A stretch of DNA of 34,321 nt from an uncultured bacterium (lineage in GTDB: Bacteria > Actinomycetota > Actinomycetes > Mycobacteriales > SCTD01): the NCBI GenBank assembly GCA_964243385.1, contig CAXTFU010000005.1, positions 8,713-43,033 of the forward strand, written 5' to 3'. Shown here one piece after another: positions 3,779 through 20,293 of the stretch (position 1 is its first letter; each line of letters begins with the position of its first letter). The position numbers and the translations under genes are program-made. Below the pieces are notes generated by a model. The model saw only the letters and a list, made by a program, of their open reading frames with translations. It did no database searches and was not told the DNA's origin.

Positions 3779-4342
3779 ATGGGCGCGGATCAGGTGGCCG
3801 ACCTGCAGGTCCGGCTGGCGGAGCGCGGCGTCGACTGGTGCGTCGTCGGCGGGTGGGGTGTCGACGCCCTGCTGGGCCGGGTGACCCGGCTGCACGAGGA
3901 CGTCGACGTGCTGCTGTCACGAGCAGACGCCCAGGCAGCCCTGACGCTGCTGGAGCAGGACGGCTTCCAGCTCGTCGACCGGTGGTCGGAGAGCCGCGAC
4001 GTCCCCGGGCACCACCCTCTCGTGGGCGAGCCGGTGCCGTCGGCGTTCGTCCTGAGACACACGGACGGTCGGGAGGTCGACGTCCACCTCGACGACACCG
4101 TCACCGGACGGGTCGTCCCCCTGTGGGACACCGAACGGCGGCTCGAGGCGGGTGACCTCGCGGCGACCGGGTCGGTCGACGGTGTCGCCGTCCGCTGCAT
4201 GACCGCTGCGATGCAGCTGACCTGCCACCAGGGCTACGACCTGCCCCCCGCGCAGGTTGCCGACGTCCGCCTCCTGCGGCGGCTCGTCCAGCCGGACGCG
4301 ACGTCGTCCGACCGCCGCGGCGACGACCGCGGAGCAGGCTGA
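3779..4342 (+). CDS. Nucleotidyltransferase of the lincosamide Lnu(A/C/D/E) / aminoglycoside-2''-adenylyltransferase family
   Basis: GGWGVDALLGRVTRLHEDVD, EVDVH and QLTCHQGYD motifs. Confidence 0.8.
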   Translation: MGADQVADLQVRLAERGVDWCVVGGWGVDALLGRVTRLHEDVDVLLSRADAQAALTLLEQDGFQLVDRWSESRDVPGHHPLVGEPVPSAFVLRHTDGREVDVHLDDTVTGRVVPLWDTERRLEAGDLAATGSVDGVAVRCMTAAMQLTCHQGYDLPPAQVADVRLLRRLVQPDATSSDRRGDDRGAG

Positions 4343-4515
4343 CCACCGGCTCCGTCGCTCGGGGTCCGCGACGCCACCGACGCACGCAGCGCCGGGCCGC
4401 CACCCGCCAGCGCGAGCTGTGCGACCGCGCCGGGCGTCGGGTGGTACCAGGTCCTCGACGGACCGGGCGGTGACGACCCCCACCTCCGGACCATGGGGAC
4501 TGGTCATTCGTCGTC

Positions 4516-7500
4516 ATGTGCGAGGAGCGTCACCAGGCCGACGACCCCCGGGTGAGCAGACACGTCGTGCGCGGTGGACCGGCCCTCCGGCAGGGCGGTC
4601 GGCGCGGCGCGGTGCTGCAGCTGCTGGCGCTGCTCCTGCTGACCTGGGCGACGGGGCTGACCGGCTCCGTCGTCGTGGCCAACGTCGTCCGCGCCCTGGT
4701 CGGGGTCGAGATCGACCTCCTGACCGCCGCCGACGGCGCGGCCCCCGTGTCGGTCGGCGTGCTCGCGTACGCCCAGGGGACAGCGGCGCTCGGACTGGTG
4801 GCGCTGCTGTCTGCGGCTGCGCTGCTCGCCGGGGCCGTCGAGCTCACCCGGACCGCCCGGTCCGGTGAGCAGGTGCGGGCCTGGACGCCCTTCCTGCGCG
4901 GGCTGTCCCGCACCCCGGCTGTCGCGCGCGGTCTGGCGGTGGTGCTCCTGCTCGCCGCGCTGGCAGTCCTGGTCAGCGCCGTCCTGCTCGTGCTGTCCGT
5001 CGTCCTCCTGCCTGCCGCTGCCGTCCTCGCCACGATCTGGTGGCGCCGGCCCGCCTGGCGGCGGTCGTGGATGCGCGGGCTGCTCGTGGCCGCGGTGCCG
5101 CTGGGCGTCGGAGCTGCTGTCGTCGTGCGGTGGGCCCTGTGGCTGCCGTTCGTCGTCGTCGACGGCGCCGGGATCCGCGCCGCGCTCCGGCACAGCGCGG
5201 ACACAGCGTCGGGCCGCGTGCTCCGCACCGCGCGGTCCCTGACGGCAGTGGCTGTCCTCGCCGTCGTGCCGGCGACGCTGCTGGCCGGCTCGTCGGCCCT
5301 CGGAGCGCCCGCCGCCGTGGTGGGCGTCGGCACGCTGCTGCTCGTCGTCGGCCTGCTGGTCGCCCTCGCCGTCGTGGCCACGGTCCTGCACGAGGACGTC
5401 GCCCTCGCGGCAGTCGTCCCGCGCCAGCGCCCGCCCGCCCGGCGGCTCCGGCGCCTCGCACCGAGCCCGGCCGTGACCCTCGTCCTGCTCATCGGCCTGC
5501 TGGCGCAGAGCGGCTGGTCGGCGCCCGTCGCCGCGGCCGACGCGCCGACCGCGTCCGCCGTCACCGTCGTCGTCACCAGCCTGGGAGACGCGCTGGACAC
5601 GGCCGGGCAGTGCGCGAGCGACTCGGCCACCTGCACCCTGCGCGCGGCGGTCGAGACAGCGCCAGCCGGCGGCACCGTCGTGTTCGGCGTCACCGGCGCG
5701 ATCCAGCTGGTGCAGACCCTCCACGTGCGGCAGTCGTTGACGATCGACGGCACCGGACAGCGGATCACCCTGAGGAGCCCGTCGAGCGGCACGGCGGTCC
5801 TGCTCGGGGCGGGGTCGGGCGGCGGTGACGAGACCCCGCCGGGCGGGGGTGACGAGACCCCGCCGGGCGGGGGTGACGAGACGCCTCCTGAGCAGACCGC
5901 TCCGGCGGGCAGCGGGAGCTGGGCGCTGCGCAACCTGACCTTCCTGGGGGCCTACGCCGACGGTCACGGCGTGCTGGTCGGCAGCGGCTCGGCGATCGTC
6001 GAGAACGCCACCTTCACGCGGCACAAGACGCTGGACACCCTCGGGAGCGCCCTCTACGCGGCGAACGGCGGCCTGTCGGTCGTGAACAGCACGTTCGTCG
6101 ACAACAGCGCGATGACGGCGGGCGGGACCGTGGCCGCCAGCCCCTCCGTGCCGCTGTCCGTCAACGCCAGCACCTTCGTCGGCAACCACGGCGGCGGTGT
6201 GCGGGGGGCCGGGGCGACGATCGCCAACAGCGTCTTCCGCGGTGCCTCCGGCGGCTTCAACTGCGACGTGTCCGCGAGCGTCAGCGGCAACGTGTCGAAC
6301 GACGGCTCCTGCGCCACCGACGTCGGGGGCGTTCCCGACCCGTCCCGCACGAGCCTCACGGACGCCCAGCTCGCGCTGCAGGCACTCGGCGACAGCACGG
6401 GCCCCGTCGAGACCGTCGCGCTGCGCGCGGGCAGTGCTGCGATCGCCGCCGGCGCACCGGCGACCTGTCCCAGCCACGACGCGCGCGGTGAGGTGCGCGG
6501 CGGGACCTGCGACGCGGGCGCCTACCAGACCGCGAACGGCACGACCACGACGATCGGTGCGACGAACCCGGCACCCTTCGGCTCCCCGATCACCGTCACC
6601 GTGACGGTGACCAACCCGCAGGGGGCGCCGACCGGCTCCGTGGAGCTCACGGGCACGCCCGCGGGCACCTCGACGGCGTCGCTGACCGCCGGCACCGGCC
6701 TCGGCGTCAGCACCGCCGCCTTCACCCTCACGCCGCCCGCGGGCACGCACGCGCTGCAGGCGACGTACGTGCCGGACGCGGGGCTGTCCGCGAGCACGGG
6801 GTCGCTGGACCTGGTGGTGCAGGAGCAGACCAGCGCCACCACGCTCGAGGTCACGCCCGCCGGCAGCTCGAGGCCGGGGACCCCGGTCACCCTCACCGCG
6901 AGGGTCGCCAACGGCGGCGACGTCGCGCACGAGCAGCCCACCGGGTCGGTCGACTTCGCGAGCGGCAGCACCGCGCTCGGCCGCGCCGCGCTCGTCGCCG
7001 GCGTCGCGACCTGGACCGGCGTGCTGCCGCTCGGGTCCCACGACCTCACCGCGGTGTACCTCCCGGGCAACGGCTTCCTCACCTCGACCGGGACCGCGAG
7101 GCACAGCGTGCGGAGCGTCAGCCGCGTGACCGTGGACGCTCCCGGGACGGTCGTCCACGGCGCGCCCTTCACCCTTCACGCGAGCCTCCCGGCCGGCGCG
7201 ACGGGCCGCGTCGTCTTCTCCGGTCGCACGACGGACCGCGTCTGGTCGTCCGCCCCCGTGCCGATCACCGCGGGGACGGCGACGACGCAGTGGACCCAGG
7301 TCCTGGCCCCCGGACAGTGGTCCTTCACCGCGGAGTACGGCGGCGACGAGTCCCAGGAGCGGGCGACCTCCGAGCCCGCCGACACCACCGTCACGCCCGC
7401 CGGCACCGGCGTCGTCCTGACCGGTCCGTCGCGGAGCACCACGAGCGGTCAGCCGGCGCCGTTCACCGCCACCGTCGACGCGAGGCTGACGCCGGCGCTG

Positions 7501-10500
7501 CCGACGGGGAGCGTCGAGCTGCGCGCCGACGGCACCCTGGTGGCCTCGGCCGTCCTCGTGGACGGCGTCGCGTCGCTCGCGCCGACCGGCATCCCGGTCG
7601 GGACGGACCGCTCGCTCGTCGCGACGTACCTGCCGGACACGGCCGGCTTCACGACGAGTGCGTCGACTGCCGTCCCGCACACGGTCTCGCGGGGCAGCAC
7701 CACCACCCGCCTGGCCGCGCCGGCCACGTCCCGCTCCGGCGAGACCGTCGCGCTCGTCGCCACGGTCGCCCCTGTCGCACCGTCGACGGCTGCCCCGGCC
7801 GGCCACGTCACCTTCTCCGCCGGCAGCACCGACCTCGGCAGTGCGGCGCTGGTCGACGGCGTCGCCACCCTGTCGACGACCGCCCTGCCGGTCGGCACCA
7901 GCGCCCTCACCGCCTCCGCCACCCCCACCTCGGAGCTCGCGGGCAGCACGTCCTCCGCCCTGCAGCACGCCGTCAGCCGGTCGGCCACCACCGTCTCCCT
8001 GACGAGCGACGAGCCGGCGCCCGGCCCCGGCCAGCCGCTCACCCTCACCGCCACGGTGGCGGTGACGGCGCCGGGCTCGGGCACGCCGACCGGGACGGTC
8101 GCCTTCCGCGACGGGACCGCCGTGCTCGCCACCGTGCCGGTCAGCGGGGGCAGCGCGGTCCTCCACCTCGCCGGCCTCACCGGAGGCACGCACGCGCTGA
8201 CCGCGACGTACGCCGGTGACGCCAGCCGGACCGGCAGCGACGTCGCGCTGACGGTGACCGTCGCGAAGGTCGCGGCCCTCGTCCAGATCGTGGACGTCTC
8301 GCCCGAGCCGTCGCGCTTCGGCTCGCCGGTGACCGTGGTCGTCTCGGTGCGGGGAGCCACCGGGCTGCCCGTCAGCGGGGACGTCGAGCTGACCTGGGGC
8401 GGATCCACGGTCGTCGGCCGCGCCGCGGTCCTGGACGGTGTGGCCACCGTCGTCGTCAGCGACCTGGGCGTCGGTCGCACCACCCTCGCCGCGCGCTTCC
8501 TGGGAGACGCCCACCACGTCGCGGCTGCGGACGAGGCGCTGACCTGGCACACCGTCCTGCCCGCGACGCCGCCGGTCCTGCTGTCGTCGGAGGCCAGCCC
8601 GACCCGGTACGGGGAGCGCATCCGCCTGTTCGCCGACGTCAGCCCGGTCGCCGGTCGCGTGCCGACCGGCGCGGTCACCTTCACGGTCGCCGGCGGCGTG
8701 CCGGTCCGCTCGACCCACTTCGACGCCGCCGGCCGCGCGTCCGCCGACGTCTACCCGGGGCGGGCCGGGCTCCTCGGCGTCTCGGTCAGCGTCGCCGGCG
8801 ACCCCTGGTTCGAGCCGCTGCGCGCCGACGGTCTCGTCCACGAGGTCACCGCAGGGTCCGCCACGGTCACCCTCGAGTCGGTCGCGCCCGCCGTGGTCGG
8901 CGAGCCGACGTCGCTGATCGCACGGGTCGGACCGGCGGCGGCGCACGGCATCGGGGGGGTCCGCTTCTTCGACGGGGCGGACGAGCTCGGCATCGCAGCC
9001 GTGGACGACCTCGGCCGCGCCGTCCTGCGCCCGACGTTCGGCGCGAAGGGGGTGCACCGCCTGACCGCCCTCTACGACAACACGTCAGGCACCTTCGACC
9101 AGGTGCGCTCCGCGCCACTGCTGCTGCCCGTCGCCGGTCGGGCCGTGTCGTTCGGCATGCTCGCCGGCGGGTCGACCTACGGCGACGACGCCGCGTACAC
9201 GGTCCGGCTCTTCACGACCCGGGCGCACACCGACGAGCCGACCGGTTCGGTCTCGGTGCGCCTCGGCGACCGCGACCTCGGCACCGCCGCGCTCGGCACG
9301 TCGGCGCCGCTCGGCCAGGGCGTGATGCTCACCACGAAGGTGCCGCTGGGCCGCTCGCTGGAGCCGGGGTCGTACGCCGTCACCGTCACCTACAGCGGCG
9401 ACGCCGCCTTCGAGACCGTCAGCCAACCGGCGACGCTCACCGTCGACAGGCGGCTCCTGGTCACCTCGCTCGATCCGCCCGCCCCGAGCCCGGCCCTGGC
9501 GGGGCAGCCCGTCCGCCTGTCCGGCCGGATCGCGCTGCCGCCGACTGCCGCCGGCGTCCTGCCGCCCACGGGGACGCTGCAGCTGGGCCGCGGCGGAGCC
9601 TCCTGCACCGTCCCGATCGGGGACGGTGGCGGCTCGTGCACCGTCGCGTTCCGCGGCGACCCGGCCGAGGAGCAGCTGCACGCCGTCTACAGCGGCGACA
9701 GCCGGTACTGGGCGCTCCCCTCGCCGACGGTGCGCCTGCCCGTCGTGCGCAGCACGGCCCGGATCGAGCTGAGCACAGCGCTGCCGGACGGAGGCACCTG
9801 GAACGACGCAGAGGCGGGCAGCGTCACCTGGAGGACGACCGCCACGACCCCGACACCCGTGCAGGGCCGGGTGGAGGTCTGGACCTCCGAGGGGCAGCAG
9901 GCGAGCTGCCCGACCACGTCGACGGGCAGCTGCGACGTCCGGTTCTCCGCAGCGACGACCAGCGGATGGGTCGAGGTGCGCTTCGCCGGCGACGCGACCT
10001 ACGTCCCGTCGACGCGGCGGCAGGTGCTGTCCGTGCTGGGCTGCCACGACGTCCGCGCCACGTCCGGCGGACGGGTGCTCACCGCGCCGAACTGCGGCCG
10101 CACGAAGTACCTCGCCGGGACGGCCGTGTCGCTCGAGGCGCCGGAGCGTCCTGGATCCACCTTCCTCGGCTGGGCCACCGACCGGACCCCCGGCACCGTC
10201 CTGGAGCCCAGCCCGCTGGGCGTCGGCCGCGACCTGGTGGCGGAGCCGCGCTACCAGCCGGTCTGCTTCACCCTGTCGGTGACGTCCTACCCGGCCTCGC
10301 TGCGGACGGTCACCCCGTCCCCGGCGCCCGACTGCGACGACGCCGTCGACCCGTCCTTCACCCCGAGGGACGTGGGGGCGATCGCCCGCAGCGAGGTCGC
10401 CGCCGGCCGCATGCGCTACCGCGTCGGCACGCGCGTCGAGCTGCCGACCTACTCCGAGCGGCTCAGCCCGACGATGACAGCTCCGGTGCGGTGGTACGGG

Positions 10501-13107
10501 GAGGGCGTGAGCCCCGAGGGCGTGCTGACCGTGCGGGGCGACGTCGAGCTCGAGAAGCGGCTGGAGCCGGCGTGCCGGGCCTTCGTGGTCGACGGCCCAC
10601 CGGGGGCGACCACGAGCATCGTCGGGAGCAGCTTCGACACGTCGGTCAGCCCGTTGCTCGCGCGCAGCCTCGGCGGGACGTGCGCACGCGGTGACGGCTC
10701 CCGCGGGTACCTCCCCGGCACGGTCCTGCGCGTGGCACTGACGCCGGCCGCCGGCACCTGGTTCGAGCGCTGGGGGAGCCTCGAGCCGCTGAGCAGGCAC
10801 CGGGCGCCGACGGCTGCGCAGGTCGCGGTCGAGCGTCCCGCCGACATCGCCCGGGTCGGCCGCAGCGAGGCGACGACGGTCGTGGTCCCCGACCGGGACA
10901 CCGGGATGTCCGGCTTCACCAGCGCGGTGACCTGTCACCGGCTCGACGTCACGGTCGAGGACGCCGTCCTCCCGGGGCAGCTGCGCCGCGGCGACAGGCC
11001 GGCGTCGGTCGCGACGACCGCGGCGAACTGCCCGTCCTGGTGGCTCGTGCACGAGGGGCGGCCGGCCGCAGAGCACGCACGCTGGTACCTGGCCGGCACG
11101 GACGTCACGCTGACCGCGTCGGGGACCGTGCGCTGGGGCACCGTCGACGAGTTCGTCACCGCGCGCCAGATCGACTTCCGCGGGTGGAGCGGCGGCGTCA
11201 GCGGCCGGGGCCTCGTGCAGCAGGTGCGGATGGACGGCCCCGTCACCGCCACCGCCCAGTGGTACGTGAGCGCGCGCTGCGCCGGCGTCGTCGTGCGCAC
11301 CCAGCCGGCAGGCGCGGGAGAAGTGGTCATGAGCGGCCTCGGGACCGAGTGCCCGAAGCGCGAGAGCGCCTTCGCCGGGGTCGCCCCCACGCCGCAGGCG
11401 CCGCTGGGCTCCACCGTCTCGCTCGCCGCGCGTCCGATGGGCGCGCTGCAGGTCATCTGGAAGGTCGAGGGACGGAGCGTCACGAACACCCAGGCCTGCC
11501 TGGCCCGGGAGGACGAGATCCAGCGGAGGTACGACGAGGGGTACGAGGCGGGCCGCAGCAAGGACGCGATCGACCAGACGCTCATGGTGCAGGGGTACCT
11601 GCCGGGCCTGACCGTGAGCCGGGTCCAGCAGGAGGCCGCGCGCATGCAGGCGCTCGGCTGGACGCAGCAGAACATCGTCGGCGATCTCGAACGGATGGGG
11701 CTGCTGCAGCCGTCCGGTGCACTCACCCCGGACCGGCTGCGCGCCAACCCGTGCGAGCGCACCGAGGTCAGCACCGTCCACCCGGCCGGTCAGCGCGGCC
11801 TGACGACGACCGTCGAGGGCTCGATGGTCTACACGGCCCACTTCTGCCAGGCCGTCGACCCGTCCGTCACCATCGTCGGGCTCGACGGGGTGTCGGCGCC
11901 AGCGACGCCCGGGCAGCTGGCCGCCTTCGGCGGGCTGTTCCGCAGCAGCAGCAGCGCCGGCAACTGCCCGACGCCGGGGTGGTTCTCCCCGGGGACGACG
12001 GCGGAGCTGGGCGCCGGTGGGACCGGCGTGGCCGGCTACGTCCTCACGGGCTGGAAGCTCGACGGGACGGCGAAGCCGGCCGGTCCGCTGTCGGTGCCGA
12101 TCTCGGCGACGGCGGCTCCGCGCTCGGTCGCGGCGACGGTGCAGGTCGTCTGCCACCGGCTGACGGTGGCCGCGCAGTTCGGCCACACCGCCTACCCGCT
12201 GCCGAACTGCCCTGGCGCGGCCCCCTCGCGCAACCTGTACGCCGAGGGCACGAAGGTCACGGTGACCGCGGGCCCGAGCGGCGGTCACGCGCTGGTCGGC
12301 TGGCACGAGACGGGCAGCTCGTTCAACCCGACGATCGCCGTCATGGACCAGCCGCGCACGCTCACCGCGAACTTCCGCGCCAAGAGCGTCGGCGAGGTGA
12401 TGAAGGAGTCGGTGATCGACCCCGCGCTCGACGCCGCCGGCATCGCGGCCAAGAAGGCCGTCGGAGGGATCGCCTACACGATCAAGGTCGTGGGCGACCA
12501 GCTCATCGACGGCGCCATCCTCGGCACGCTGTCCTCGCTCGGCACCGCGCTGCAGCAGGGCTTCGCGGCGATCGGCGTCCAGGGCGTCGTGCTCGACCAG
12601 CTCGCCCTCGCCCTGCAGGTCCCCCAGCACGCGTTCGCGGCCGGCTTCGCGGGCTTCGACTGCGTCCAGGAGTGGGCGTGGGGGACGTCCCTGCCGACGC
12701 TGGGCGACCTGAAGACCACGGTCACGTCTGCGGTGAAGGGCGAGGCCAAGGCGCAGGTGGCCGGCGTCGAGGTCGACACCGTGCTGGCCGAGGCGCAGCT
12801 GCTGGCCGCCAAGATGGCGGCCGGCGACCCGGCCGCGCTGGCCCAGGCCTACATCACCGCGGCGGGCGGCGGCCCAGCCGTCATGGTCGTGCACCTGGCG
12901 CTGGACATCTCCGCGCACCCGGAGGTCTGGCAGGAGCGAGCCACCGACGCCGCCGCGGGGGCCGGGGCGTACGCGCTGGACCTGCTGGCCGAGGAGTTCG
13001 GCACCGGCTTCACCTGGGAGGCGTCGGCCACCGAGGCCTGGACGACCGGTGGCGATGCGTTCCTGTCCTGCATGGCTGACAACGGCAAGGCGATCGCCGG
13101 GGGGTAG
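4516..13107 (+). CDS. Giant (2863 aa) membrane-linked surface protein: multi-pass membrane domain, CSLREA/choice-of-anchor-Q-like region, Ig-like (Big_3-type) repeats, InlB B-repeat-like domains and unknown C-terminal domain
   Basis: Uninterrupted 8.6-kb ORF with GC3-biased codons. CTLRAA at 5632; GPVETVALRAGSAAI...DARG...CDAGAYQ; repeated PTGxVxF...H.LTA.Y.GD units. Exact start uncertain (ATG 4516 or GTG 4552). Confidence 0.9.
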   Translation: MCEERHQADDPRVSRHVVRGGPALRQGGRRGAVLQLLALLLLTWATGLTGSVVVANVVRALVGVEIDLLTAADGAAPVSVGVLAYAQGTAALGLVALLSAAALLAGAVELTRTARSGEQVRAWTPFLRGLSRTPAVARGLAVVLLLAALAVLVSAVLLVLSVVLLPAAAVLATIWWRRPAWRRSWMRGLLVAAVPLGVGAAVVVRWALWLPFVVVDGAGIRAALRHSADTASGRVLRTARSLTAVAVLAVVPATLLAGSSALGAPAAVVGVGTLLLVVGLLVALAVVATVLHEDVALAAVVPRQRPPARRLRRLAPSPAVTLVLLIGLLAQSGWSAPVAAADAPTASAVTVVVTSLGDALDTAGQCASDSATCTLRAAVETAPAGGTVVFGVTGAIQLVQTLHVRQSLTIDGTGQRITLRSPSSGTAVLLGAGSGGGDETPPGGGDETPPGGGDETPPEQTAPAGSGSWALRNLTFLGAYADGHGVLVGSGSAIVENATFTRHKTLDTLGSALYAANGGLSVVNSTFVDNSAMTAGGTVAASPSVPLSVNASTFVGNHGGGVRGAGATIANSVFRGASGGFNCDVSASVSGNVSNDGSCATDVGGVPDPSRTSLTDAQLALQALGDSTGPVETVALRAGSAAIAAGAPATCPSHDARGEVRGGTCDAGAYQTANGTTTTIGATNPAPFGSPITVTVTVTNPQGAPTGSVELTGTPAGTSTASLTAGTGLGVSTAAFTLTPPAGTHALQATYVPDAGLSASTGSLDLVVQEQTSATTLEVTPAGSSRPGTPVTLTARVANGGDVAHEQPTGSVDFASGSTALGRAALVAGVATWTGVLPLGSHDLTAVYLPGNGFLTSTGTARHSVRSVSRVTVDAPGTVVHGAPFTLHASLPAGATGRVVFSGRTTDRVWSSAPVPITAGTATTQWTQVLAPGQWSFTAEYGGDESQERATSEPADTTVTPAGTGVVLTGPSRSTTSGQPAPFTATVDARLTPALPTGSVELRADGTLVASAVLVDGVASLAPTGIPVGTDRSLVATYLPDTAGFTTSASTAVPHTVSRGSTTTRLAAPATSRSGETVALVATVAPVAPSTAAPAGHVTFSAGSTDLGSAALVDGVATLSTTALPVGTSALTASATPTSELAGSTSSALQHAVSRSATTVSLTSDEPAPGPGQPLTLTATVAVTAPGSGTPTGTVAFRDGTAVLATVPVSGGSAVLHLAGLTGGTHALTATYAGDASRTGSDVALTVTVAKVAALVQIVDVSPEPSRFGSPVTVVVSVRGATGLPVSGDVELTWGGSTVVGRAAVLDGVATVVVSDLGVGRTTLAARFLGDAHHVAAADEALTWHTVLPATPPVLLSSEASPTRYGERIRLFADVSPVAGRVPTGAVTFTVAGGVPVRSTHFDAAGRASADVYPGRAGLLGVSVSVAGDPWFEPLRADGLVHEVTAGSATVTLESVAPAVVGEPTSLIARVGPAAAHGIGGVRFFDGADELGIAAVDDLGRAVLRPTFGAKGVHRLTALYDNTSGTFDQVRSAPLLLPVAGRAVSFGMLAGGSTYGDDAAYTVRLFTTRAHTDEPTGSVSVRLGDRDLGTAALGTSAPLGQGVMLTTKVPLGRSLEPGSYAVTVTYSGDAAFETVSQPATLTVDRRLLVTSLDPPAPSPALAGQPVRLSGRIALPPTAAGVLPPTGTLQLGRGGASCTVPIGDGGGSCTVAFRGDPAEEQLHAVYSGDSRYWALPSPTVRLPVVRSTARIELSTALPDGGTWNDAEAGSVTWRTTATTPTPVQGRVEVWTSEGQQASCPTTSTGSCDVRFSAATTSGWVEVRFAGDATYVPSTRRQVLSVLGCHDVRATSGGRVLTAPNCGRTKYLAGTAVSLEAPERPGSTFLGWATDRTPGTVLEPSPLGVGRDLVAEPRYQPVCFTLSVTSYPASLRTVTPSPAPDCDDAVDPSFTPRDVGAIARSEVAAGRMRYRVGTRVELPTYSERLSPTMTAPVRWYGEGVSPEGVLTVRGDVELEKRLEPACRAFVVDGPPGATTSIVGSSFDTSVSPLLARSLGGTCARGDGSRGYLPGTVLRVALTPAAGTWFERWGSLEPLSRHRAPTAAQVAVERPADIARVGRSEATTVVVPDRDTGMSGFTSAVTCHRLDVTVEDAVLPGQLRRGDRPASVATTAANCPSWWLVHEGRPAAEHARWYLAGTDVTLTASGTVRWGTVDEFVTARQIDFRGWSGGVSGRGLVQQVRMDGPVTATAQWYVSARCAGVVVRTQPAGAGEVVMSGLGTECPKRESAFAGVAPTPQAPLGSTVSLAARPMGALQVIWKVEGRSVTNTQACLAREDEIQRRYDEGYEAGRSKDAIDQTLMVQGYLPGLTVSRVQQEAARMQALGWTQQNIVGDLERMGLLQPSGALTPDRLRANPCERTEVSTVHPAGQRGLTTTVEGSMVYTAHFCQAVDPSVTIVGLDGVSAPATPGQLAAFGGLFRSSSSAGNCPTPGWFSPGTTAELGAGGTGVAGYVLTGWKLDGTAKPAGPLSVPISATAAPRSVAATVQVVCHRLTVAAQFGHTAYPLPNCPGAAPSRNLYAEGTKVTVTAGPSGGHALVGWHETGSSFNPTIAVMDQPRTLTANFRAKSVGEVMKESVIDPALDAAGIAAKKAVGGIAYTIKVVGDQLIDGAILGTLSSLGTALQQGFAAIGVQGVVLDQLALALQVPQHAFAAGFAGFDCVQEWAWGTSLPTLGDLKTTVTSAVKGEAKAQVAGVEVDTVLAEAQLLAAKMAAGDPAALAQAYITAAGGGPAVMVVHLALDISAHPEVWQERATDAAAGAGAYALDLLAEEFGTGFTWEASATEAWTTGGDAFLSCMADNGKAIAGG
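5818..5889 (+). repeat. In-frame 24-bp tandem repeat x3 (GGGDETPP)
   Basis: ggcggcggtgacgagaccccgccg / ggcgggggtgacgagaccccgccg / ggcgggggtgacgagacgcctcct. Confidence 0.95.
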
Positions 13108-13161
13108 CCCCGCGCTCGCGGCTTCGAGCACGCACGGACGGCGTCGGCGGGCAGCGGTGGC

Positions 13162-14235
13162 CTACACGTTGAAGCGGAACTCCACCACGTCGCCGTCCTG
13201 CATGACGTAGTCCTTGCCCTCCATCCGCGCCTTCCCTGCGGCGCGGGCGGCCTGGGTGGAGCCGGCGGCCATGAGGTCGTCGAAGCCGATGACCTCGGCC
13301 TTGATGAAGCCCCGCTGGAAGTCGGTGTGGATGACGCCGGCGGCCTCGGGCGCGGTCGCGCCCTGCTTGATGGTCCAGGCGCGAGCCTCCTTGGGCCCGG
13401 CGGTGAGGTAGGTCTGCAGCCCGAGCGTGGCGAAGCCGATGCGCGCGAGCTGGTGCAGGCCGCTCTCGGACTGGCCCATCGACTGCAGCAGCTCGAGCGC
13501 CTCGGCGTCGTCCATCTCGATGAGCTCGGACTCGACCTTGGCGTCGAGGAACACGGCCTCGGCGGGGGCGACCAGGCCGGCCAGCTCGGCCCGCAGGGCC
13601 TCGTCGTTCAGCTCGTCCTCGTCGAGGTTGAACACGTACAGGAAGGGCTTGGCGGTCAGGAGGTGCAGCTCGCGCAGCGGCCCGCGGTCGACGCCCGAGG
13701 CGAAGATCGTCTGCCCGGAGTCGAGGACGGCCTGCGCCTGGCGGACGGCCTCGAGCTGGGGCACGACGTCCTTCTTGATGCGCGCCTCCTTCTCCAGGCG
13801 CGGGACGGCCTTCTCGACCGTCTGCAGGTCGGCGAGGATCAGCTCGGTGTTGATGGTGTCCATGTCGTCCTTGGGCGAGACGCGCCCGTCGACGTGCACC
13901 ACGTTGTCGTCCTGGAACGCCCGGATGACCTGGCAGATCGCGTCGCTGTCGCGGATGTTCGCGAGGAACTTGTTCCCCAGGCCCTCGCCCTCGGAGGCGC
14001 CCTTGACGATGCCGGCGATGTCGACGAAGTCGACCGTCGCGGGGATGGTCTTCTGCGAGGAGAACAGCTCGGCGAGCTTGGGCAGGCGCTCGTCCGGGAC
14101 GCCGACGACACCGACGTTCGGCTCGATCGTCGCGAACGGGTAGTTCGCCGCCAGCACGTCGTTCTTGGTGAGCGCGTTGAACAGGGTGCTCTTGCCGACG
14201 TTGGGCAGACCGACGATGCCGAGGGAGAGACTCAC
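13162..14235 (-). CDS. ychF: Redox-regulated ATPase YchF (Obg family)
   Basis: GIVGLPNVGKSTLFNALT, ANYPFATIEPN, DIAGIVKGASEGEGLGNKFL; C-terminal GKDYVMQDGDVVEFRFNV. Confidence 0.98.
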   Translation of the reverse strand: MSLSLGIVGLPNVGKSTLFNALTKNDVLAANYPFATIEPNVGVVGVPDERLPKLAELFSSQKTIPATVDFVDIAGIVKGASEGEGLGNKFLANIRDSDAICQVIRAFQDDNVVHVDGRVSPKDDMDTINTELILADLQTVEKAVPRLEKEARIKKDVVPQLEAVRQAQAVLDSGQTIFASGVDRGPLRELHLLTAKPFLYVFNLDEDELNDEALRAELAGLVAPAEAVFLDAKVESELIEMDDAEALELLQSMGQSESGLHQLARIGFATLGLQTYLTAGPKEARAWTIKQGATAPEAAGVIHTDFQRGFIKAEVIGFDDLMAAGSTQAARAAGKARMEGKDYVMQDGDVVEFRFNV

Positions 14236-14315
14236 GTCGTACGACGCTACCGGCGCGCGCGGTCCCCACGCGCGGCCTGACCGGTCTTGTCGGACCCGGC
14301 TGGCACGGTGTGCCC

Positions 14316-15476
14316 ATGACCCCGTCCACCGTCGTCGCGCTCGTGCTGGGGCTGCTCGTCGGCGCGCTGCTGGGCCTGCTCGCCGGCCGCCTGCTCGCGC
14401 GGCGCGACGAGCAGGTGCTGCTGAGCTCGTTCGAGGGCCTGGCGACCCGGGCGCTGGCCGGCACGCGCGACGAGGCCGACCGCGAGCTGCACGGGCAGCG
14501 GCAGGCCGTGGAGCACCTGGTCGGTCCGCTGCGGGAGCAGCTGCACCTCGTCGAGGCGCAGCTGCGGGGGCTCGAGGTCGAGCGGGCCCGGGCGCAGGCC
14601 GAGCTGCGCGAGCAGGTCAGCGGGGTGCGGCGCACGTCCGAGCAGCTCGGGCGCGAGACCGCCTCGCTGGCCTCGGCCCTGCGCCGTCCGCAGGCACGCG
14701 GGCGCTGGGGCGAGGTGCAGCTGCGGCGCTGCGTCGAGTTCGCCGGGATGGTCGACCGCTGCGACTACTCCGAGCAGGAGACGCTGCGCGCCGCCGACGG
14801 CACGACGCTGCGCCCCGACCTCGTCGTGCGCCTCGCCGGCGGCCGCAGCATCGTGGTCGACGCCAAGGTGACCCTCGCCGCCTACCTCGAGGCCGTCGAC
14901 TGCGCCGACGACGAGGCAGCCGCCACGCGCATGGCCGCCCACGCCCGGCACCTGCGGGCGCACGTCGACCGGCTCGCCGACAAGGCGTACTGGTCCGCGC
15001 TGCCCGACACCCCCGAGTTCGTCGTGCTGTTCCTGCCCGGCGAGGCCTTCCTCGCGCCGGCCCTCGAGCACGACCCGTCGCTGCTCGAGCACGCCTACGC
15101 CCGGCGGGTCCACCTCGCGACCCCGACGACGCTGGTCTCGCTGCTGCGGACCGTCGCGCACGGCTGGCAGCAGCACGCGCTCACCGAGAACGCCCGCGCG
15201 GTCGTGGCGACCGGTCAGGAGCTGTACGCCAGGCTCGGCACGCTGGGGGCACATGTCGACAAGCTCGGCCGCTCGCTGGGCACCGCCGTCACGGACTTCA
15301 ACCGGACGGTCGGCTCGCTCGAGCGCACCGTGCTGCCCTCGGCCCGCCGGATGACCGAGCTCGGGCTCGCCGGCGACGTGCCGGCGGCGCCGCGGCCGGT
15401 CGACGACCTGCCGCGTCCGCTCGCCGCGTCCGAGCTCGTCCCGCCGCTCAGCCCGGTGCGGGACCAGGCCGTGTAG
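14316..15476 (+). CDS. rmuC: DNA recombination protein RmuC
   Basis: N-terminal TM and coiled coil, RGRWGEVQL, RPDLVVRL...VDAK, FVVLFLPGE, ATPTTL; divergent from ychF. Confidence 0.95.
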   Translation: MTPSTVVALVLGLLVGALLGLLAGRLLARRDEQVLLSSFEGLATRALAGTRDEADRELHGQRQAVEHLVGPLREQLHLVEAQLRGLEVERARAQAELREQVSGVRRTSEQLGRETASLASALRRPQARGRWGEVQLRRCVEFAGMVDRCDYSEQETLRAADGTTLRPDLVVRLAGGRSIVVDAKVTLAAYLEAVDCADDEAAATRMAAHARHLRAHVDRLADKAYWSALPDTPEFVVLFLPGEAFLAPALEHDPSLLEHAYARRVHLATPTTLVSLLRTVAHGWQQHALTENARAVVATGQELYARLGTLGAHVDKLGRSLGTAVTDFNRTVGSLERTVLPSARRMTELGLAGDVPAAPRPVDDLPRPLAASELVPPLSPVRDQAV

Positions 15477-15490
15477 GCCCAGCCGCCACC

Positions 15491-15581
15491 GCCCGGCTGT
15501 CGCACCCCGGCTGTCGCACCCCGGCTGTCGTACCCCGGCTGTCGTACCCCGGCTGTCGTACCCCGGCTGTCGTACCCCGGC
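15491..15581. repeat. 14-bp tandem repeat (CCCCGGCTGTCGYA) x~6.5, VNTR
   Basis: Two ...CGCA units then four ...CGTA units plus a half unit, between convergent genes. Confidence 0.95.
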
Positions 15582-15653
15582 CGGCCGCGACACCGACCGG
15601 AGCGCGCCACCCGAGCCCCCGCGAGGGGCAGCACGGCGCGGCGCACCCCGGCG

Positions 15654-15968
15654 TCAGCGGACGGCGACGCCGTACGCCTCGCAGAAGTCGACGGCAGCCT
15701 TGGCGACGACCGCAGCCGGGCTCGCGCCGGCGCTCGGGTGGTCGGCCATGAGCCGGCGGGCCACCTCCGGCGCGTCGAGGTCGCCGACCGCCCGCAGGTG
15801 GTCCCAGGCGTGCACCGCCAGCTCGCGCGCCAGGCCCTCCGGCAGGCCGGGGTCCTTGCTGCGGGCCTGCGCCGCGACCCAGTCGGCGTCGTAGCTGCCC
15901 TGCGGCGGTCCGAAGACGCGCTCGCCCTCGCCGTACGCCGTCGGGCCGCTGCCGCTCGAGGAGGTCAC
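15654..15968 (-). CDS. Hypothetical protein (104 aa)
   Basis: Protein-like composition and GC3 bias. TAGCGT -10 lies 6 nt before the GTG. Fills the gap between rmuC and DUF6542. Confidence 0.65.
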   Translation of the reverse strand: MTSSSGSGPTAYGEGERVFGPPQGSYDADWVAAQARSKDPGLPEGLARELAVHAWDHLRAVGDLDAPEVARRLMADHPSAGASPAAVVAKAAVDFCEAYGVAVR

Positions 15969-16127
15969 CGGTCCACGCTAGAGCAGCACCGCGTCCTGTA
16001 GCCGGCCCGGCACACGCTGTTCGGACGCGCCGCGGGCCGGGTGAACTGCGCCGGTCCCTGCCCGTCCGGCAGTAGTTTCGAGGCGTGATCCGCCGCTCCG
16101 CCGTCCCTCGTCCATGATCGCAGGCGC

Positions 16128-16553
16128 ATGACCGCGGGCACCGAGGAGCGCCGGCCGTCCGCACGGCTCGCCGACCGCCGGGGGCTCACGACGCCCGGCG
16201 CTGCCGTCGTCATGCTCGTCGTCGGGCTGGTCGGCGCGGTGTTCGACGTGGCGACCGGCCAGGGGCTCCGGCTCGTGTTCGCGGTGCTGTTCGTCCTCGG
16301 CTGCGCCCTCGGCGCGCTGACCGTGCACCGCGAGCACCTTCGAGCGGTCGTCGTCATGCCGCCGCTCGTCTACGCGGTGCTGGCGCTCGGTGCCAGTGCG
16401 GTCGAGAGCTGGGGCACCGGCGGGTCGTTCCTGCGTGACCAGGCGCTCGAGCTCGTAAACTCGCTCGTGCTGCGGGCGCCGGTGCTCGTCACCGGCTTCC
16501 TGCTCGTCCTCGTGCTCGCGCTCCTGCGCGGCATGCGGCGCTCGCGCACCTGA
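16128..16553 (+). CDS. DUF6542-type membrane protein (Rv1111c-like)
   Basis: About four hydrophobic helices, AVVVMPPLVY motif; conserved position convergent with ispH. Confidence 0.75.
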   Translation: MTAGTEERRPSARLADRRGLTTPGAAVVMLVVGLVGAVFDVATGQGLRLVFAVLFVLGCALGALTVHREHLRAVVVMPPLVYAVLALGASAVESWGTGGSFLRDQALELVNSLVLRAPVLVTGFLLVLVLALLRGMRRSRT

Positions 16554-16583
16554 CGGGACAGGGTCGGCGGCCGACGAGCGGGC

Positions 16584-17567
16584 TCAGGTCTCGCTGATGC
16601 CCGCGGCACGAAGGTCGCGGCGCAGCTCGGGCGGCAGGGCGAACTGCAGGTGCTCCTGCGCCGACTCGACCTCGGTGACCTCGCCGTAGCCGCGCGCCGC
16701 CAGCCACTCCATGACCGCGTGCACGAGCGTCTCGGGCACCGACGCGCCGCTCGACAGACCGACCGTGGTGACGCCCTCGAGCCACGCCTCGTCGATCTCG
16801 GAGGCGTCGTCGACCAGGTAGGACGCGCGGGCACCGGCGTCGAGCGCCACCTCGACGAGCCGGACGGAGTTCGAGCTGTTGCGCGACCCGACGACGAGCA
16901 CGAGGTCGGAGTCGGCGGCGATCTCCTTGACCGCGATCTGGCGGTTCGACGTCGCGTAGCAGATGTCGGCCGACGGCGGACCCTGCAGCAGCGGGAAGCG
17001 CTGGCGGAGCGCCTCAACCGTCACGTTCGTCTCGTCGACCGACAGCGTGGTCTGCGACAGGTAGGCGACCTTCGACGGGTCGCGGACGGCGACCGAGGCC
17101 GCCTCCTCGACGCCGTCGACGAGGTGGATGCGCTCCGGCGCCTGGCCGGTCGTGCCGACCACCTCCTCGTGCCCCTCGTGGCCGATGAGCACGATGTCGA
17201 GGTCGTCGGCGGCGAAGCGCTTCGCCTCCAGGTGCACCTTCGTGACGAGCGGGCAGGTCGCATCGATCGTGCGCAGCTGCCGGACCGCGGCCTCCGCGTG
17301 CACCGTCGGGGCCACGCCGTGGGCGGAGAACACCACGGTCGCACCCTCGGGCACCTCGTCGGTCTCGTCGACGAAGATCGCGCCCTGCTGCTCGAGCGTG
17401 CGCACGACGTGCGCGTTGTGGACGATCTGCTTGCGGACGTAGACCGGCGCGCCGTACGCGGCGAGCGCCTTCTCGACGGTGAGCACGGCCCGGTCGACGC
17501 CCGCGCAGTAGCCGCGCGGCTTGGCCACCAGGACTCGCTTGGACGGTCGCACCGAGGTCTCCGTCAT
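16584..17567 (-). CDS. ispH: 4-hydroxy-3-methylbut-2-enyl diphosphate reductase
   Basis: [52 protein letters not shown] lies 7 nt before ATG 17567. Confidence 0.98.
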
Positions 17568-17707
17568 GCGCACCATCCTACGTGCGCGTGCCTACCACGC
17601 CCGGTGACGTCGCTCTCGCTCGCGTGTGGGCGGCACGCGCGAGGGCACGCAGAACGGGACCGCAGACCGCCTGCCTGCCTGACCACTGCCCGTTGGAGGC
17701 CTCCGCC

Positions 17708-19000
17708 ATGCCCAGCCCCGTCCCGACCCCCGTCGCCGCCGTCCTCGGGATCGTGCCGACCGTCCTGGGCGGGGTCCGCCGCCTGCCGGGCAAGGCCATC
17801 GCCTTCCCGGTGCACGCGCTGAGCCTGTCGCTCATGACCCTCGACCGCAGCCGGCGCGAGTACGACGCGCTGGCCGAGCGCGGCGAGCGGCTCATCGCCC
17901 GCCTGCGCGGCGTCAGCCTCGACGAGGTCGAGGACCGCGTCGAGGACGGCCTGCAGGGCACGCCGCTGGCGGCGCCGTACGACGCCCTCGAGGACGCCCT
18001 GGAGGACGCCGCCGAGAACGTCACCGCACTCGTCCGCAAGGCCCCGGGCGCCGCGCGCCGGGCCGCCGGCACCGCGTCCGCGTCGACCGGCAAGGTGCTC
18101 GACCTCGCGGCCGACACCGTCGAGGACCTGTCGTCGGCCGCCGCCGGCGGGACGCAGGAGCTGGCCGCCGAGTTGGCCGACGACGTCTCGAGCGCCGCCT
18201 CCACCGCCGCCTCCACCGCGGCCACGGCCGTCTCGACGGCCGCCGCTGGCGCCGACGACGCGGTGTCCGGCGCCGTCGACACCGCCCGCGACGCCGCCAC
18301 GAGCGCGACCGGGACGGTCGCTGACGCAGCCGGGACGGTCGCCGACACCGCCGACGCGGCCGTCGACACCGCCGCCGAGGCCGTGCAGCGCGCTGCCGGC
18401 ACCGCGGCGGACACCGCCAGCACCACGGCCGACGCCGCAGCCGACGCCGTGGGCGCCGCGGCGGACACCAGCGCCGCGTCCGCCACCGCCCCCGGCGCTG
18501 CCCCGTCCGGCACCGAGGACGACCGCCCCGCCGACGAGGCCCCGAAGGGCGCGCCGACCCCTCGGGCCACCGAGCCGGAGATCACGCGCCACGACACCGC
18601 CGCCTCGTCCGACGTCGTCGAGGCCGTCGAGCGGGTGAGCGCCGCGGTCGGCGGGGCCGTGCTCGCGCACGACGACCTGCCGCTGCCCGACTACGACCAC
18701 ATGACGCTCGGCTCGCTGCGCGGGCGCATGCGCAGCCTGGACGTGCCGCAGCTGGTCCAGATCCGCGACTACGAGAAAGCGCACGCCAACCGGCTGCCGA
18801 TCGTGACGATGCTCGACAACCGCATCGCCAAGCTCGCCACCGATCCCACCGCGCCGCTGAGCGGCAGCTCGCCCACCGACCCGGTGCCCGCAACGTCGCG
18901 CGGCACCCGCCGCGGCTCGAAGGCCGACTCCTCGTCGTCCGGCCCGAAGATCAACCCGCCGTCGCAGGGCGACCCGACGAACCCGGCCCAGCCCCGCTAG
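17708..19000 (+). CDS. Lipid droplet-associated protein homolog (Rv1109c-like) with long Ala/Thr/Asp-rich repeat region
   Basis: GGAGG SD before ATG 17708. N-terminal REYDALAERGE and C-terminal LPDYDHMTLGSLRGRMRSL...YEKAHANR...TMLDNRI. Syntenic between ispH and xseA. Confidence 0.75.
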   Translation: MPSPVPTPVAAVLGIVPTVLGGVRRLPGKAIAFPVHALSLSLMTLDRSRREYDALAERGERLIARLRGVSLDEVEDRVEDGLQGTPLAAPYDALEDALEDAAENVTALVRKAPGAARRAAGTASASTGKVLDLAADTVEDLSSAAAGGTQELAAELADDVSSAASTAASTAATAVSTAAAGADDAVSGAVDTARDAATSATGTVADAAGTVADTADAAVDTAAEAVQRAAGTAADTASTTADAAADAVGAAADTSAASATAPGAAPSGTEDDRPADEAPKGAPTPRATEPEITRHDTAASSDVVEAVERVSAAVGGAVLAHDDLPLPDYDHMTLGSLRGRMRSLDVPQLVQIRDYEKAHANRLPIVTMLDNRIAKLATDPTAPLSGSSPTDPVPATSRGTRRGSKADSSSSGPKINPPSQGDPTNPAQPR

Positions 19001-19012
19001 GCACCGCCCGTC

Positions 19013-19053
19013 CGACGAGGCCGCTCCCCGTACGCCGGGGAGCGGCCTCGTCG
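19013..19053 (+). terminator. 18-bp perfect hairpin (terminator or REP-like)
   Basis: CGACGAGGCCGCTCCCCG-tacgc-CGGGGAGCGGCCTCGTCG, 12 nt after the stop of the Rv1109c-like gene; no U-tract. Confidence 0.6.
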
Positions 19054-19093
19054 CGTCCGGAGACGGTCGGACGTCCGCACTAGGCTCCGCGCC

Positions 19094-20293
19094 GTGGGAC
19101 TGGCCAACAGCGCGGAGCAGCCCCTGCCCGTCCGCACCGTCGCCCGGTCCATCGCCGAGTGGGTCGACCGGCTCGGCCGGGTCTGGGTCGAGGGCCAGGT
19201 CACCCAGGTGCACCGGCGCTCCGGCACGGCCTACCTCGTGCTGCGCGACCCGGTCGCCGACATGAGCCTCAACGTCACCTGCTCGCGGATGGTGTGCGAC
19301 GCCGTCGTCCCGGTGCTGTCCGAGGGCGACCGCGTCGTCGTGCACGGCAAGCCCGACTTCTACGCCGGCCGCGGCACGCTCAGCCTCAAGGCGATCGAGA
19401 TCCGGCCCGTCGGCGTGGGCGAGCTGCTCGCCCGGCTCGAGCGGCTCAAGGCGCTCATGGCGGCCGAGGGCCTGTTCGCGGCCGACCGCAAGCGGCCGCT
19501 GCCGTTCCTGCCGCGCCGCGTCGGGCTCGTCACCGGACGCGACAGCGCCGCCGAGCGCGACGTCCTCGAGAACGCCCGGCGACGCTGGCCGGCGGTCCGC
19601 ATCGAGGTGCGCGAGGTGGCCGTGCAGGGCCTGTCGGCGGTCGAGCAGGTCGTCGGCGCCCTGCAGGAGCTCGACCGGCACCCGGAGGTCGACGTCATCG
19701 TCGTCGCCCGGGGCGGCGGCAGCGTCGAGGACCTGCTGCCGTTCAGCGACGAGACGATGTGCCGCGCCGTCGTGGCCTGCCGCACGCCGGTCGTCAGCGC
19801 GATCGGGCACGAGCCCGACAGCCCGCTGCTCGACCTCGTCGCCGACGTGCGCTGCTCGACCCCGACGGACGCCGGCAAGCGCGTCGTCCCGGACGTCGCC
19901 GAGGAGGGCCGGCGCCTGCGCCAGGCGCGCGACCGGTGCCGCCGGGTCGTGCACGGCACGGTCGCCCGCGAACGCGCCCACCTGGCGGCGCTGCGCAGCC
20001 GTCCGGTGCTCGCGGCGCCGGTGACGCTCGTCGACGTGCGGCGCGCCGGCGTCGTCGAGCTGCGGGACCGGGCCCGCCGCAGCACCGGCGCGCGCCTGCA
20101 GGCCGCGAGCAGCGACCTCGCGCACGTGCTGGCCCGCGTCGTCGCCCTGAGCCCGCAGGCCACCCTCGACCGCGGCTACGCCGTCGTGCAGGACGAGGAC
20201 GGCGCCGTCGTCCGCGACGCCGACGCCGTGGAGCCCGGCACCGACCTGCAGGTGCGGCTGGCGCGCGGCACGCTGCTCGTCACGGCCGACTGA
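19094..20293 (+). CDS. xseA: Exodeoxyribonuclease VII large subunit
   Basis: OB-fold [49 protein letters not shown] lies 7 nt upstream of the GTG. Confidence 0.97.

Follow-up and report, generated by a model that had tools for sequence, protein, structure and literature searches.

A rare family of giant actinobacterial proteins joining a predicted GPDPase_memb-type membrane module to a probably extracellular ectodomain through a signal-peptide-like helix

The DNA analysed here (the window) is a stretch of 34,321 nucleotides from contig CAXTFU010000005.1 of an uncultured member of the Mycobacteriales (assembly GCA_964243385.1), and the subject is one giant gene whose product, P0001, starts with a predicted polytopic membrane module and continues into an ectodomain of roughly 2,520 residues (Table 1). 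As the G+C content of the window is 75%, long open reading frames (ORFs) occur in every frame and ORF length alone has little meaning; the frame of 4516..13107 (+) is considered genuine because of its codon-position GC and not because of its length. Third-position GC (GC3) in this frame was 0.91-1.00 in 28 of 29 successive 300-nt intervals counted from 4516, including the first three intervals, which cover the hydrophobic N-terminus (0.92, 0.91 and 0.94), and the 29th, which extends beyond the stop codon, gave 0.86. Second-position GC along the same frame was 0.44-0.72. The proposal of a first-pass annotation that membrane part and ectodomain belong to a single giant gene is thus confirmed by one frame with coding-type GC3.

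Table 1. Features of the giant gene and of its product P0001 (positions are those of the window)
Feature	Coordinates	Strand	Remarks
Whole gene (protein P0001)	4516..13107	+	ATG start, 2,863 codons plus stop
Residues 1-32: N-terminal tail, short, net positive and probably cytoplasmic	4516..4611	+	Net charge +3
Residues 33-300: polytopic membrane module, GPDPase_memb/DUF7847 family, predicted CysZ/CTL-like fold	4612..5415	+	
Residues 301-341: Arg-rich linker and eighth transmembrane helix (TM8)	5416..5538	+	n-region RQRPPARRLRRL, h-region about 319-330, AXA-type sites before D342
Residues 342-672: CSLREA-like motif, NSTF-type beta-helix rungs, choice-of-anchor Q domain	5539..6531	+	Three invariant Cys pairs
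24-bp tandem repeat, 2.8 copies, 97% matches	5816..5882	+	GGGDETPP about three times, Gly/Glu-rich beta-helix insert
Residues 673-1842: immunoglobulin-like (Ig-like) Big_3_5 array	6532..10041	+	Pfam, 12 stretches
Residues 1843-2620: seven Cys-started InlB-B-repeat-like units	10042..12375	+	Flg_new_2 and unit alignment
Residues 2328-2413: helical insert between B-repeat units five and six	11497..11754	+	Bounded by invariant Cys pair
Residues 2621-2863: orphan Ala/Gly-rich C-terminal domain, predicted all-helical	12376..13104	+	Invariant pair C2716/C2852

Residues 1-345 were searched with phmmer in a library of 1.84 billion representative proteins, and 27 matches at E <= 1e-3 were obtained. Among these were the full-length giants P0002 (2,829 aa), P0006 (2,852 aa) and P0007 (2,861 aa), which align end to end with P0001 at 58, 47 and 39% identity, respectively; an added search gave a further giant, P0029 (2,828 aa). 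P0003, P0004 and P0005 (963, 679 and 1,184 aa) carry the same membrane domain followed by beta-helix and Big_3_5 sequence, and end in Arg/Pro-rich out-of-frame tails that we read as assembly frameshifts. The membrane domain was present in all eight clusters that keep an N-terminus (P0001, P0002, P0029, P0006, P0007, P0003, P0004 and P0005). Searches with the C-terminal part returned only further pieces of the same family (P0030-P0034 and P0036-P0038, which start mid-domain), besides five weak matches to unrelated B-repeat proteins in which 11-37% of the query was covered. These results demonstrate that the fusion is genuine and conserved and that the giants form one narrow orthologous family of constant architecture. 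The first-pass annotation had asked whether homologues are fused to varied ectodomains, and searching residues 1-345 gave a constant architecture; no homologue is split by design, so that the contrary case it had considered, of membrane part and ectodomain encoded by separate genes, does not apply. The public copies P0003, P0004, P0005 and P0034 are broken by apparent frameshifts, visible as Arg/Pro-rich out-of-frame tails or internal stretches, and gene-call counts therefore understate the number of full-length genes.

The family is small, with about a dozen clusters seen, and the source genome has one copy of the gene. A single-sequence search of contigs with residues 1-345 gave no match, and a contig search with profile A1 returned one full-length relative, L004 from a Frankiales metagenome-assembled genome (MAG), together with four partial matches to the beta-helix or Ig parts. 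L004 is the nearest named relative and is annotated as a hypothetical protein at its source. In a survey with an N-terminal query, in which many of the genomes are incomplete drafts, the gene was found in one of 19 other congeneric genomes (G015, as a 2,850-aa open frame without stops), in none of 17 genomes from other genera of the family and in none of 24 from other families of the order. A conserved operon partner was ruled out, as the neighbourhoods in the window and in G015, where PfkB, thiamine-binding protein, major facilitator superfamily and P450 genes lie nearby, are wholly different. The giant gene is thus a rare accessory gene without conserved partners.

Hydropathy analysis (Kyte-Doolittle, 19-residue windows >=1.6) showed clusters at about residues 31-71, 80-112, 132-177, 185-220, 238-265, 259-302 and 314-340, bearing out the hydrophobic helices that had been described at residues ~33-292; the other 2,500 residues contain just three more hydrophobic stretches at the same cut-off. 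The membrane motif singled out in the first-pass annotation, RWALWLPFVVVDGAGIRAALRHSADTASGR, corresponds to residues 205-234. It had been likened to GPDPase_memb (PF10110) and to DUF975-like families, of which the former assignment holds and DUF975 itself was never matched. The fused homologues P0005 and P0006 score 24.6 and 15.2 bits against PF10110. The phmmer matches also included proteins of 261-384 aa from the PF10110/DUF7847 families at E 1e-12 to 9e-4, and the weaker matches were proteins of 92-468 aa. A Pfam scan covered 21 of the 27 phmmer matches, six short fragments (92-258 aa) being omitted. Of the 15 non-giant matches scanned, ten matched PF10110 (E <= 0.01), one DUF7847 only and four nothing; three (P0014, P0019 and P0024) pass the PF10110 cut-off with 32.4, 31.9 and 37.7 bits, and their phmmer E-values in the 1.84-billion-protein library were 3.7e-6, 2.1e-4 and 3.3e-4. 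The related Pfam families seen in the scans were PF10110, DUF7847 (PF25231), DUF7544 and DUF4013. In alignment A5, which holds 14 free-standing relatives and two fused N-termini, W175, R182, W185, P195, G197 and S227 are invariant in all 16 sequences, and P179, L208 and L224 are conserved in at least 90%. By these sequence likenesses, the membrane part belongs to a GPDPase_memb-type family. Invariant columns make up 19% of the membrane module compared with 20-28% in the ectodomain.

The free-standing proteins (GPDPase_memb, PF10110; DUF7847, PF25231) share the homologous module and its invariant core, but end 20-45 residues past helix seven and lack both TM8 and an ectodomain. PF10110 is named, as its family description has it, after membrane-bound glycerophosphodiester phosphodiesterases in which the module stands ahead of an enzyme domain. 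With the A5 profile, the free-standing family was detected in 159 of the 301 genomes that represent the class here (154 of 296 without the five flagged as unpublished, G074, G083, G089, G095 and G320), and the gene of the window was the only open frame of more than 1,400 aa among the matches listed in this class-wide search. A free-standing paralogue is also present in the same genome as the giant gene (L040, G000:C320, 374-2641, minus strand; DUF7847 E 7e-4, PF10110 E 0.007). It bears a low-complexity N-terminal extension rich in Gly, Ser, Tyr and Gln, with GSYGQ repeated and without a signal peptide, implying that the N-terminus of the family is cytoplasmic. L040 and L041 were considered as other passenger fusions and rejected, because in both the open frame owes its length to high GC and has the module at its C-terminus. 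For L039, L042 and L043, the GC3 filter gave no ORF over the module matches (five long frames were fetched in all). The L039 match (G355:C1:372251-372655, minus strand), in another genome of the class, lies within a 1,388-aa open frame.

An AlphaFold2 model of residues 1-345, computed from a 23-row alignment, had a mean predicted local distance difference test score (pLDDT) of 84.2 and a predicted template-modelling score of 0.76. Structure comparison gave CysZ (3tx3_B) with a score of 12.1 (208 of 226 aligned, root-mean-square deviation 4.3), yeast PNS1 (9f63_A) with 11.9 (220) and human CTL1 (7wwb_B) with 9.8 (226), and the sequence identity in these matches was 9-14%; for bundles of helices, such a match is weaker than the tool can comfortably judge. 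In predicted fold the module may resemble the sulfate permease CysZ (PDB 3tx3, 6d79 and 6d9z) and the choline-transporter-like (CTL) proteins CTL1 (7wwb and 9qu3) and PNS1 (9f63), without a relation at the sequence level: neither EI24/CysZ nor CTL families were reported for P0001 (Pfam, E up to 1) or for the 21 scanned phmmer matches (E up to 0.01). A PDB sequence search with alignment A4 returned only look-alikes of the ectodomain, namely VexL 6fi2_A (E 7.9e-5), 3lso and 3pdd, and was silent on the membrane module because the profile had absorbed long rows. An excerpt of work on CysZ describes both termini in the same extramembranous head (PMC5967866); with both termini on one side, an extra helix would be needed to export a passenger. 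The same excerpt describes assembly of CysZ in a dual, antiparallel topology (PMC5967866), which would be impossible for a module carrying an exported passenger.

The distribution of charge was compared in the A3 alignment, which contains, besides P0001, seven homologue clusters and one DNA-derived duplicate of P0002. The N-terminal tail is poorly conserved (one of 32 columns invariant), with a net charge of 0 to +7 in the other eight rows. Loops 111-134, 176-189 and 216-241 are net positive in all nine rows, the N-terminal tail and residues 293-316 are net positive in eight (P0006 has 0 for both), and loops 59-79 and 262-266 and the stretch after TM8 have net charges of -2 to +1. The loop charges agree with both ends of the module on one side, as in CysZ. 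Together with the model, these charges suggest a module that starts and ends on the cytoplasmic side, that is, with even parity. With the module ending inside, TM8 would be exactly what sends the passenger out.

The first-pass annotation had counted the last hydrophobic segment as part of the membrane domain, but residues 301-341 lie outside the family and resemble a complete Sec signal peptide. Six Arg residues in 303-314 are followed by a 12-residue h-region and then by VAAA before D342, and the CSLREA-like motif follows about 30 residues past this small-residue run. In the AlphaFold2 model TM8 is a helix at 318-334, with a pLDDT of 50-75 by 10-residue block over 301-345. TM8 is missing from all 14 free-standing relatives in A5, suggesting that it is probably the former signal peptide of the passenger, now an internal eighth helix. 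From codon 288 to codon 319 the frame offers no possible start (ATG, GTG or TTG), and the GTG at codon 320 falls inside the h-region; an internal start for a separate secreted protein was thereby ruled out, and the ectodomain cannot be translated alone with a signal peptide. Tat export was also ruled out, as the Arg pairs found ahead of TM8 in P0001, P0002 and P0029 are missing from P0006, P0007, P0004 and P0005.

The predicted order of domains in the ectodomain, with a CSLREA-like/choice-of-anchor-Q-like region, ~12 Ig-like units and ~7 Cys-paired repeats, was recovered as a choice_anch_Q match, 12 Big_3_5 stretches and seven units. In the head, choice_anch_Q (NF041518, NCBIfam) matched residues 620-671 (E 5e-12, 45.9 bits against a cut-off of 25) and was above the cut-off in all four homologues scanned (43.3-69.6 bits). 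CSLREA_Nterm (TIGR04214) matched residues 352-382 below its cut-off of 25 (E 0.012, 15.5 bits); it scored 25.3 bits in P0006 and 20.9 in P0007 and was not reported for P0002 and P0029. The CTLRAA motif at about 373-378 and the Cys pair 366/373 are conserved, and Beta_helix (PF13229) was matched in the homologues P0003-P0006. The Gly/Glu-rich insert encoded by the 24-bp repeat varies in length among homologues, and the repeat is a possible slippage site. A similar head module was found in L007 of a Solirubrobacteraceae MAG (9539-13831, plus strand; 1,430 aa), with 31% identity over residues 347-687 and a CTLREA-type motif at similar spacing after the export signal. L007 has a plain N-terminal signal peptide and about four tandem CSLREA/beta-helix/choice-of-anchor-Q modules; it showed neither a membrane module nor a Big_3_5 stalk, nor the orphan C-terminal domain.

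The Ig-like stalk matched Big_3_5 (PF16640) in its 12 stretches with E 6.4e-106 and 347.6 bits against a cut-off of 35.5. Its last two units (1691-1842) carry one invariant Cys pair each and, taken alone, matched Big_3_5 in two stretches under the cut-off (E 1e-7, 32.9 bits). Each of the following B-repeat-like units has an initial Cys, a second Cys 17-36 residues on, and then the signatures "GT.V.L" and "GW". Flg_new_2 (PF18998, divergent InlB B-repeat) matched two stretches of this region (E 2.8e-8, 34.1 bits against 23.6) and Flg_new matched weakly; Pfam thus recognises two of the seven units, and the assignment of the other five relies solely on an alignment derived from P0001. The profile behind the seven-unit tiling (1843-2621) was built from the same units, which makes the tiling a pattern and not an independent test. 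The insert between units five and six is charged and predicted helical, and its sole Pfam hint was SurA_N_3 (E 0.0072, under the cut-off).

The C-terminal domain was seen only in the giant-protein family. It matched no Pfam family at E up to 10 and nothing in PHROGs, the sole match among PDB sequences was PnuC (E 0.28), and its best score in the ESM Atlas, 0.80, is at the level reached by shuffled sequences. Conservation is highest at this end of the protein: the membrane module, head and Ig stalk share 49-55% identity with their counterparts in P0002, and identity to P0002, P0006 and P0007 is 65, 54 and 40% in the B-repeat region and 70, 58 and 38% in the C-terminal domain, so that these two parts are the most conserved of the protein. 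A rise in conservation towards the C-terminus would be expected if this end is the working tip of a fibre held at its N-terminus. The ectodomain contains 28 Cys in 14 sequential pairs, all invariant in a four-way alignment, and residues 1-345 have a single Cys, C2, which is not conserved. The 28 invariant paired Cys would fit disulfide formation outside the cell, where the ectodomain very probably lies.

Recognised sorting signals of choice-of-anchor Q proteins are LPXTG, PEP-CTERM and the type IX secretion system signal. In P0001, the C-terminus, which reads ...FLSCMADNGKAIAGG, lacks an LPXTG-type signal with the hydrophobic segment and basic tail that would come after it, and no Pfam or NCBIfam sorting domain was reported for the C-terminal 244 aa. 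Five L[PA]x[TSA]G strings are internal (329, 1021, 1284, 1537 and 1682), none near the C-terminus. A regular-expression scan of the entire protein found no lipobox-like [LVI][ASTVI][GAS]C, and TM8 has no Cys. These motif scans agree with the earlier statement that neither an LPXTG anchor nor a lipobox is present. The genome itself has four sortase-family matches above the cut-off.

Upstream of the giant gene lies a plus-strand gene (3779-4342; GC3 0.89) for a 187-aa ANT(2'')-like nucleotidyltransferase that matched PF10706 (Aminoglyc_resit, Aminoglycoside-2''-adenylyltransferase) with E 5.3e-20 and 72.5 bits; 173 bases separate it from the ATG at 4516. A minus-strand ORF at 3917-4507, which abuts the start codon, was rejected as a shadow frame of this gene. 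Further upstream neighbours in the window are esterase and SRPBCC genes. Downstream, 13162-20293 holds the housekeeping genes ychF (-) and rmuC (+), the gene for a DUF6542 protein, ispH/LytB (-) and xseA (+), and the giant gene is an accessory insert next to this core region. Scans for sigma-70 and terminator consensus sequences around both gene ends found no sites, such scans being uninformative at 75% GC. The draft assembly of the source genome is fragmented into 480 contigs, with 93% completeness and 5.7% contamination. One DNA sequencing run, X1, contains the stretch and is possibly the window's own source; its read depth is low, about 5-7, and its contigs over 4400-6400 showed no differing letters and no indels, the listed pieces having no visible bridge over 5244-5476.

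On balance, we lean slightly towards the explanation that P0001 is a Sec-exported fibre tied to a functional membrane module through TM8, which would act as an uncleaved signal anchor. The gene may have originated by in-frame fusion of a free-standing GPDPase_memb/DUF7847 membrane gene with a gene for a giant secreted protein that would originally have begun with its own Sec signal peptide followed by the CSLREA/beta-helix/choice-of-anchor-Q head. In the product, the membrane module would insert first, and the retained helix TM8 would then start Sec export of about 2,520 residues, after which 14 disulfides would form outside. The beta-helix head would sit by the membrane, and about twelve Ig-like domains would follow as a stalk, with the seven B-repeat units beyond; if extended, the fibre would measure ~80-100 nm, a length that rests on usual domain sizes and would be enough to cross the wall. 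As long as TM8 stays uncut, the fibre would be held covalently by the membrane module and would present the B-repeats and the orphan C-terminal domain distally as a binding or contact tip. What we infer in this scheme are the topology, the export route, the retention of TM8, the fibre length and the binding function. The first-pass annotation had likewise proposed an N-terminal tether with an outward C-terminus; the conserved fusion and the best-conserved distal part speak for it, while the cleavable look of TM8 speaks against a tether.

Several observations weigh against a fibre held through TM8. The match of P0001 itself to GPDPase_memb (PF10110; residues 201-257, E 0.0055, 15.9 bits) is under the 29.6-bit cut-off, the AlphaFold2 model of the C-terminal domain (pLDDT 45, helices only) is unusable, and among the public sequencing runs no RNA run is listed as containing the stretch. 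The model of the membrane module has one 45-residue helix at 133-177, which would put the strongly positive turn 176-189 outside the cell. This placement conflicts with the positive-inside pattern, but the even parity of the module is independent of the conflict: the 133-177 pair may be a full out-and-back or a hairpin from inside, and the module would begin and end on the cytoplasmic side either way. TM8 itself is weakly hydrophobic, with a hydropathy peak of only 1.6-1.7 compared with 2.0-3.3 for the other helices and a short h-region of about 12 residues. Judged by its sequence, it has every feature of a cleavable signal peptide, and small-residue AXA-type sites follow it in all seven informative fused homologues (P0003 is out of frame), implying that signal peptidase could cut the tether.

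These features of TM8 raise the doubtful but serious possibility that P0001 is a polyprotein, which signal peptidase I would cut at one AXA-type site near residue 341 into the module and a 2,520-residue fibre in a 1:1 ratio. The fibre would then be released, or held, for example, by the C-terminal helical domain, and the beta-helix head would become the distal part, as in classic Gram-positive adhesins. In addition to the small-residue sites, the n-, h- and c-regions of TM8 are typical of actinobacterial Sec signal peptides, TM8 is the lowest of the eight helices in both hydropathy and model confidence, and the equivalent module of L007 is preceded by an ordinary signal peptide at the N-terminus. 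The name of choice-of-anchor domains refers to variable anchors at the C-terminus of the proteins that carry them, and P0001 likewise ends in a unique conserved domain. However, the fusion is retained in all eight clusters down to 39% identity, although adjacent genes would serve separate products, and Ala-rich sequence at 75% GC gives AXA strings by chance. Furthermore, the C-terminal domain has one weakly hydrophobic window (1.61, 2682-2700) and no recognised anchor motif, and the more conserved distal half of the protein fits a working tip better than an anchor.

A further explanation, which we regard as unlikely, is that the module with its predicted CysZ/CTL-like fold is an active channel, transporter or lipid-handling unit gated by pull on the fibre or by contact. 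Such a role would account for the polar and aromatic core that is kept in the module (W175, P179, R182, W185, P195, G197, W206, G219 and S227) and for its being conserved like the ectodomain, more than a passive anchor needs; the best structural matches also include a sulfate permease. But no cytoplasmic output domain was found, with only about 32 residues and short loops inside the cell, which goes against the sensing system suggested by the first-pass annotation. No conserved partner genes accompany the giant gene, and literature searches yielded no paper on what the free-standing family does. An excerpt of one paper questions the transport role of CTL proteins itself (PMC13160678). It is similarly improbable that the module is mechanically or allosterically coupled to a fibre of roughly 100 nm whose orphan tip makes contact with a second membrane or some other surface.

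It is nearly excluded that two genes, one for a small membrane protein and one for a secreted giant, were joined in error during sequencing or assembly or by read-through, for although the genome is a draft, the sole run containing the stretch is shallow and several public family members (P0034 and P0003-P0005) are visibly frameshifted, the same continuous frame is found in independent assemblies from several sources (P0002, P0029, P0006, P0007 and G015), GC3 is coding-like across the junction, a separate downstream gene would have no start codon, and the X1 contigs, if perhaps of the same origin and unbridged in part, show no differences there.

The tethered fibre favoured here can be compared with known surface proteins, and giant Ig-repeat surface proteins are common. 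Sortase-anchored LPXTG adhesins with Ig repeats share with P0001 a signal peptide, a head domain, a long Ig-like stalk and a probable binding role, whereas P0001 has no C-terminal sorting signal and has instead an N-terminal polytopic module and an orphan helical end. Proteins of the LapA, SiiE and MpIBP type are Gram-negative substrates of type I secretion that are retained N-terminally in an outer-membrane pore; they have a long extender of Ig-like domains, and their ligand-binding parts lie distally, at the C-terminus. If P0001 is tethered, its working principle would be similar; however, no type I secretion signal or apparatus was found nearby, its export is presumed to be by Sec, and its anchor would lie in the inner membrane. 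The literature searches found no paper on the architecture, so the first-pass annotation's proviso that it might already be a characterised family does not hold, and a giant protein held by a seven-helix module, with neither sortase nor a lipid or single helix to anchor it, seems not to have been described before. Each building block is of a known kind; what is new, as far as searched, is their combination, together with the narrow family and its link to the membrane family.

The significance is tempered by the rarity of the gene, its lack of conserved partners and the fact that no result indicates a ligand. Nevertheless, the fusion is a natural "Rosetta stone" that links a widespread actinobacterial membrane family to the cell surface, and the predicted CysZ/CTL-like fold provides a first structural hypothesis for that family. 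TM8 offers a clean natural test of the cleavage of an internal signal peptide in actinobacteria. If the module does turn out to be coupled to the fibre, P0001 would represent a one-polypeptide contact-to-membrane device of an undescribed kind, and would give the first functional handle on DUF7847/GPDPase_memb proteins, which are present in about half of the genomes sampled from the class.

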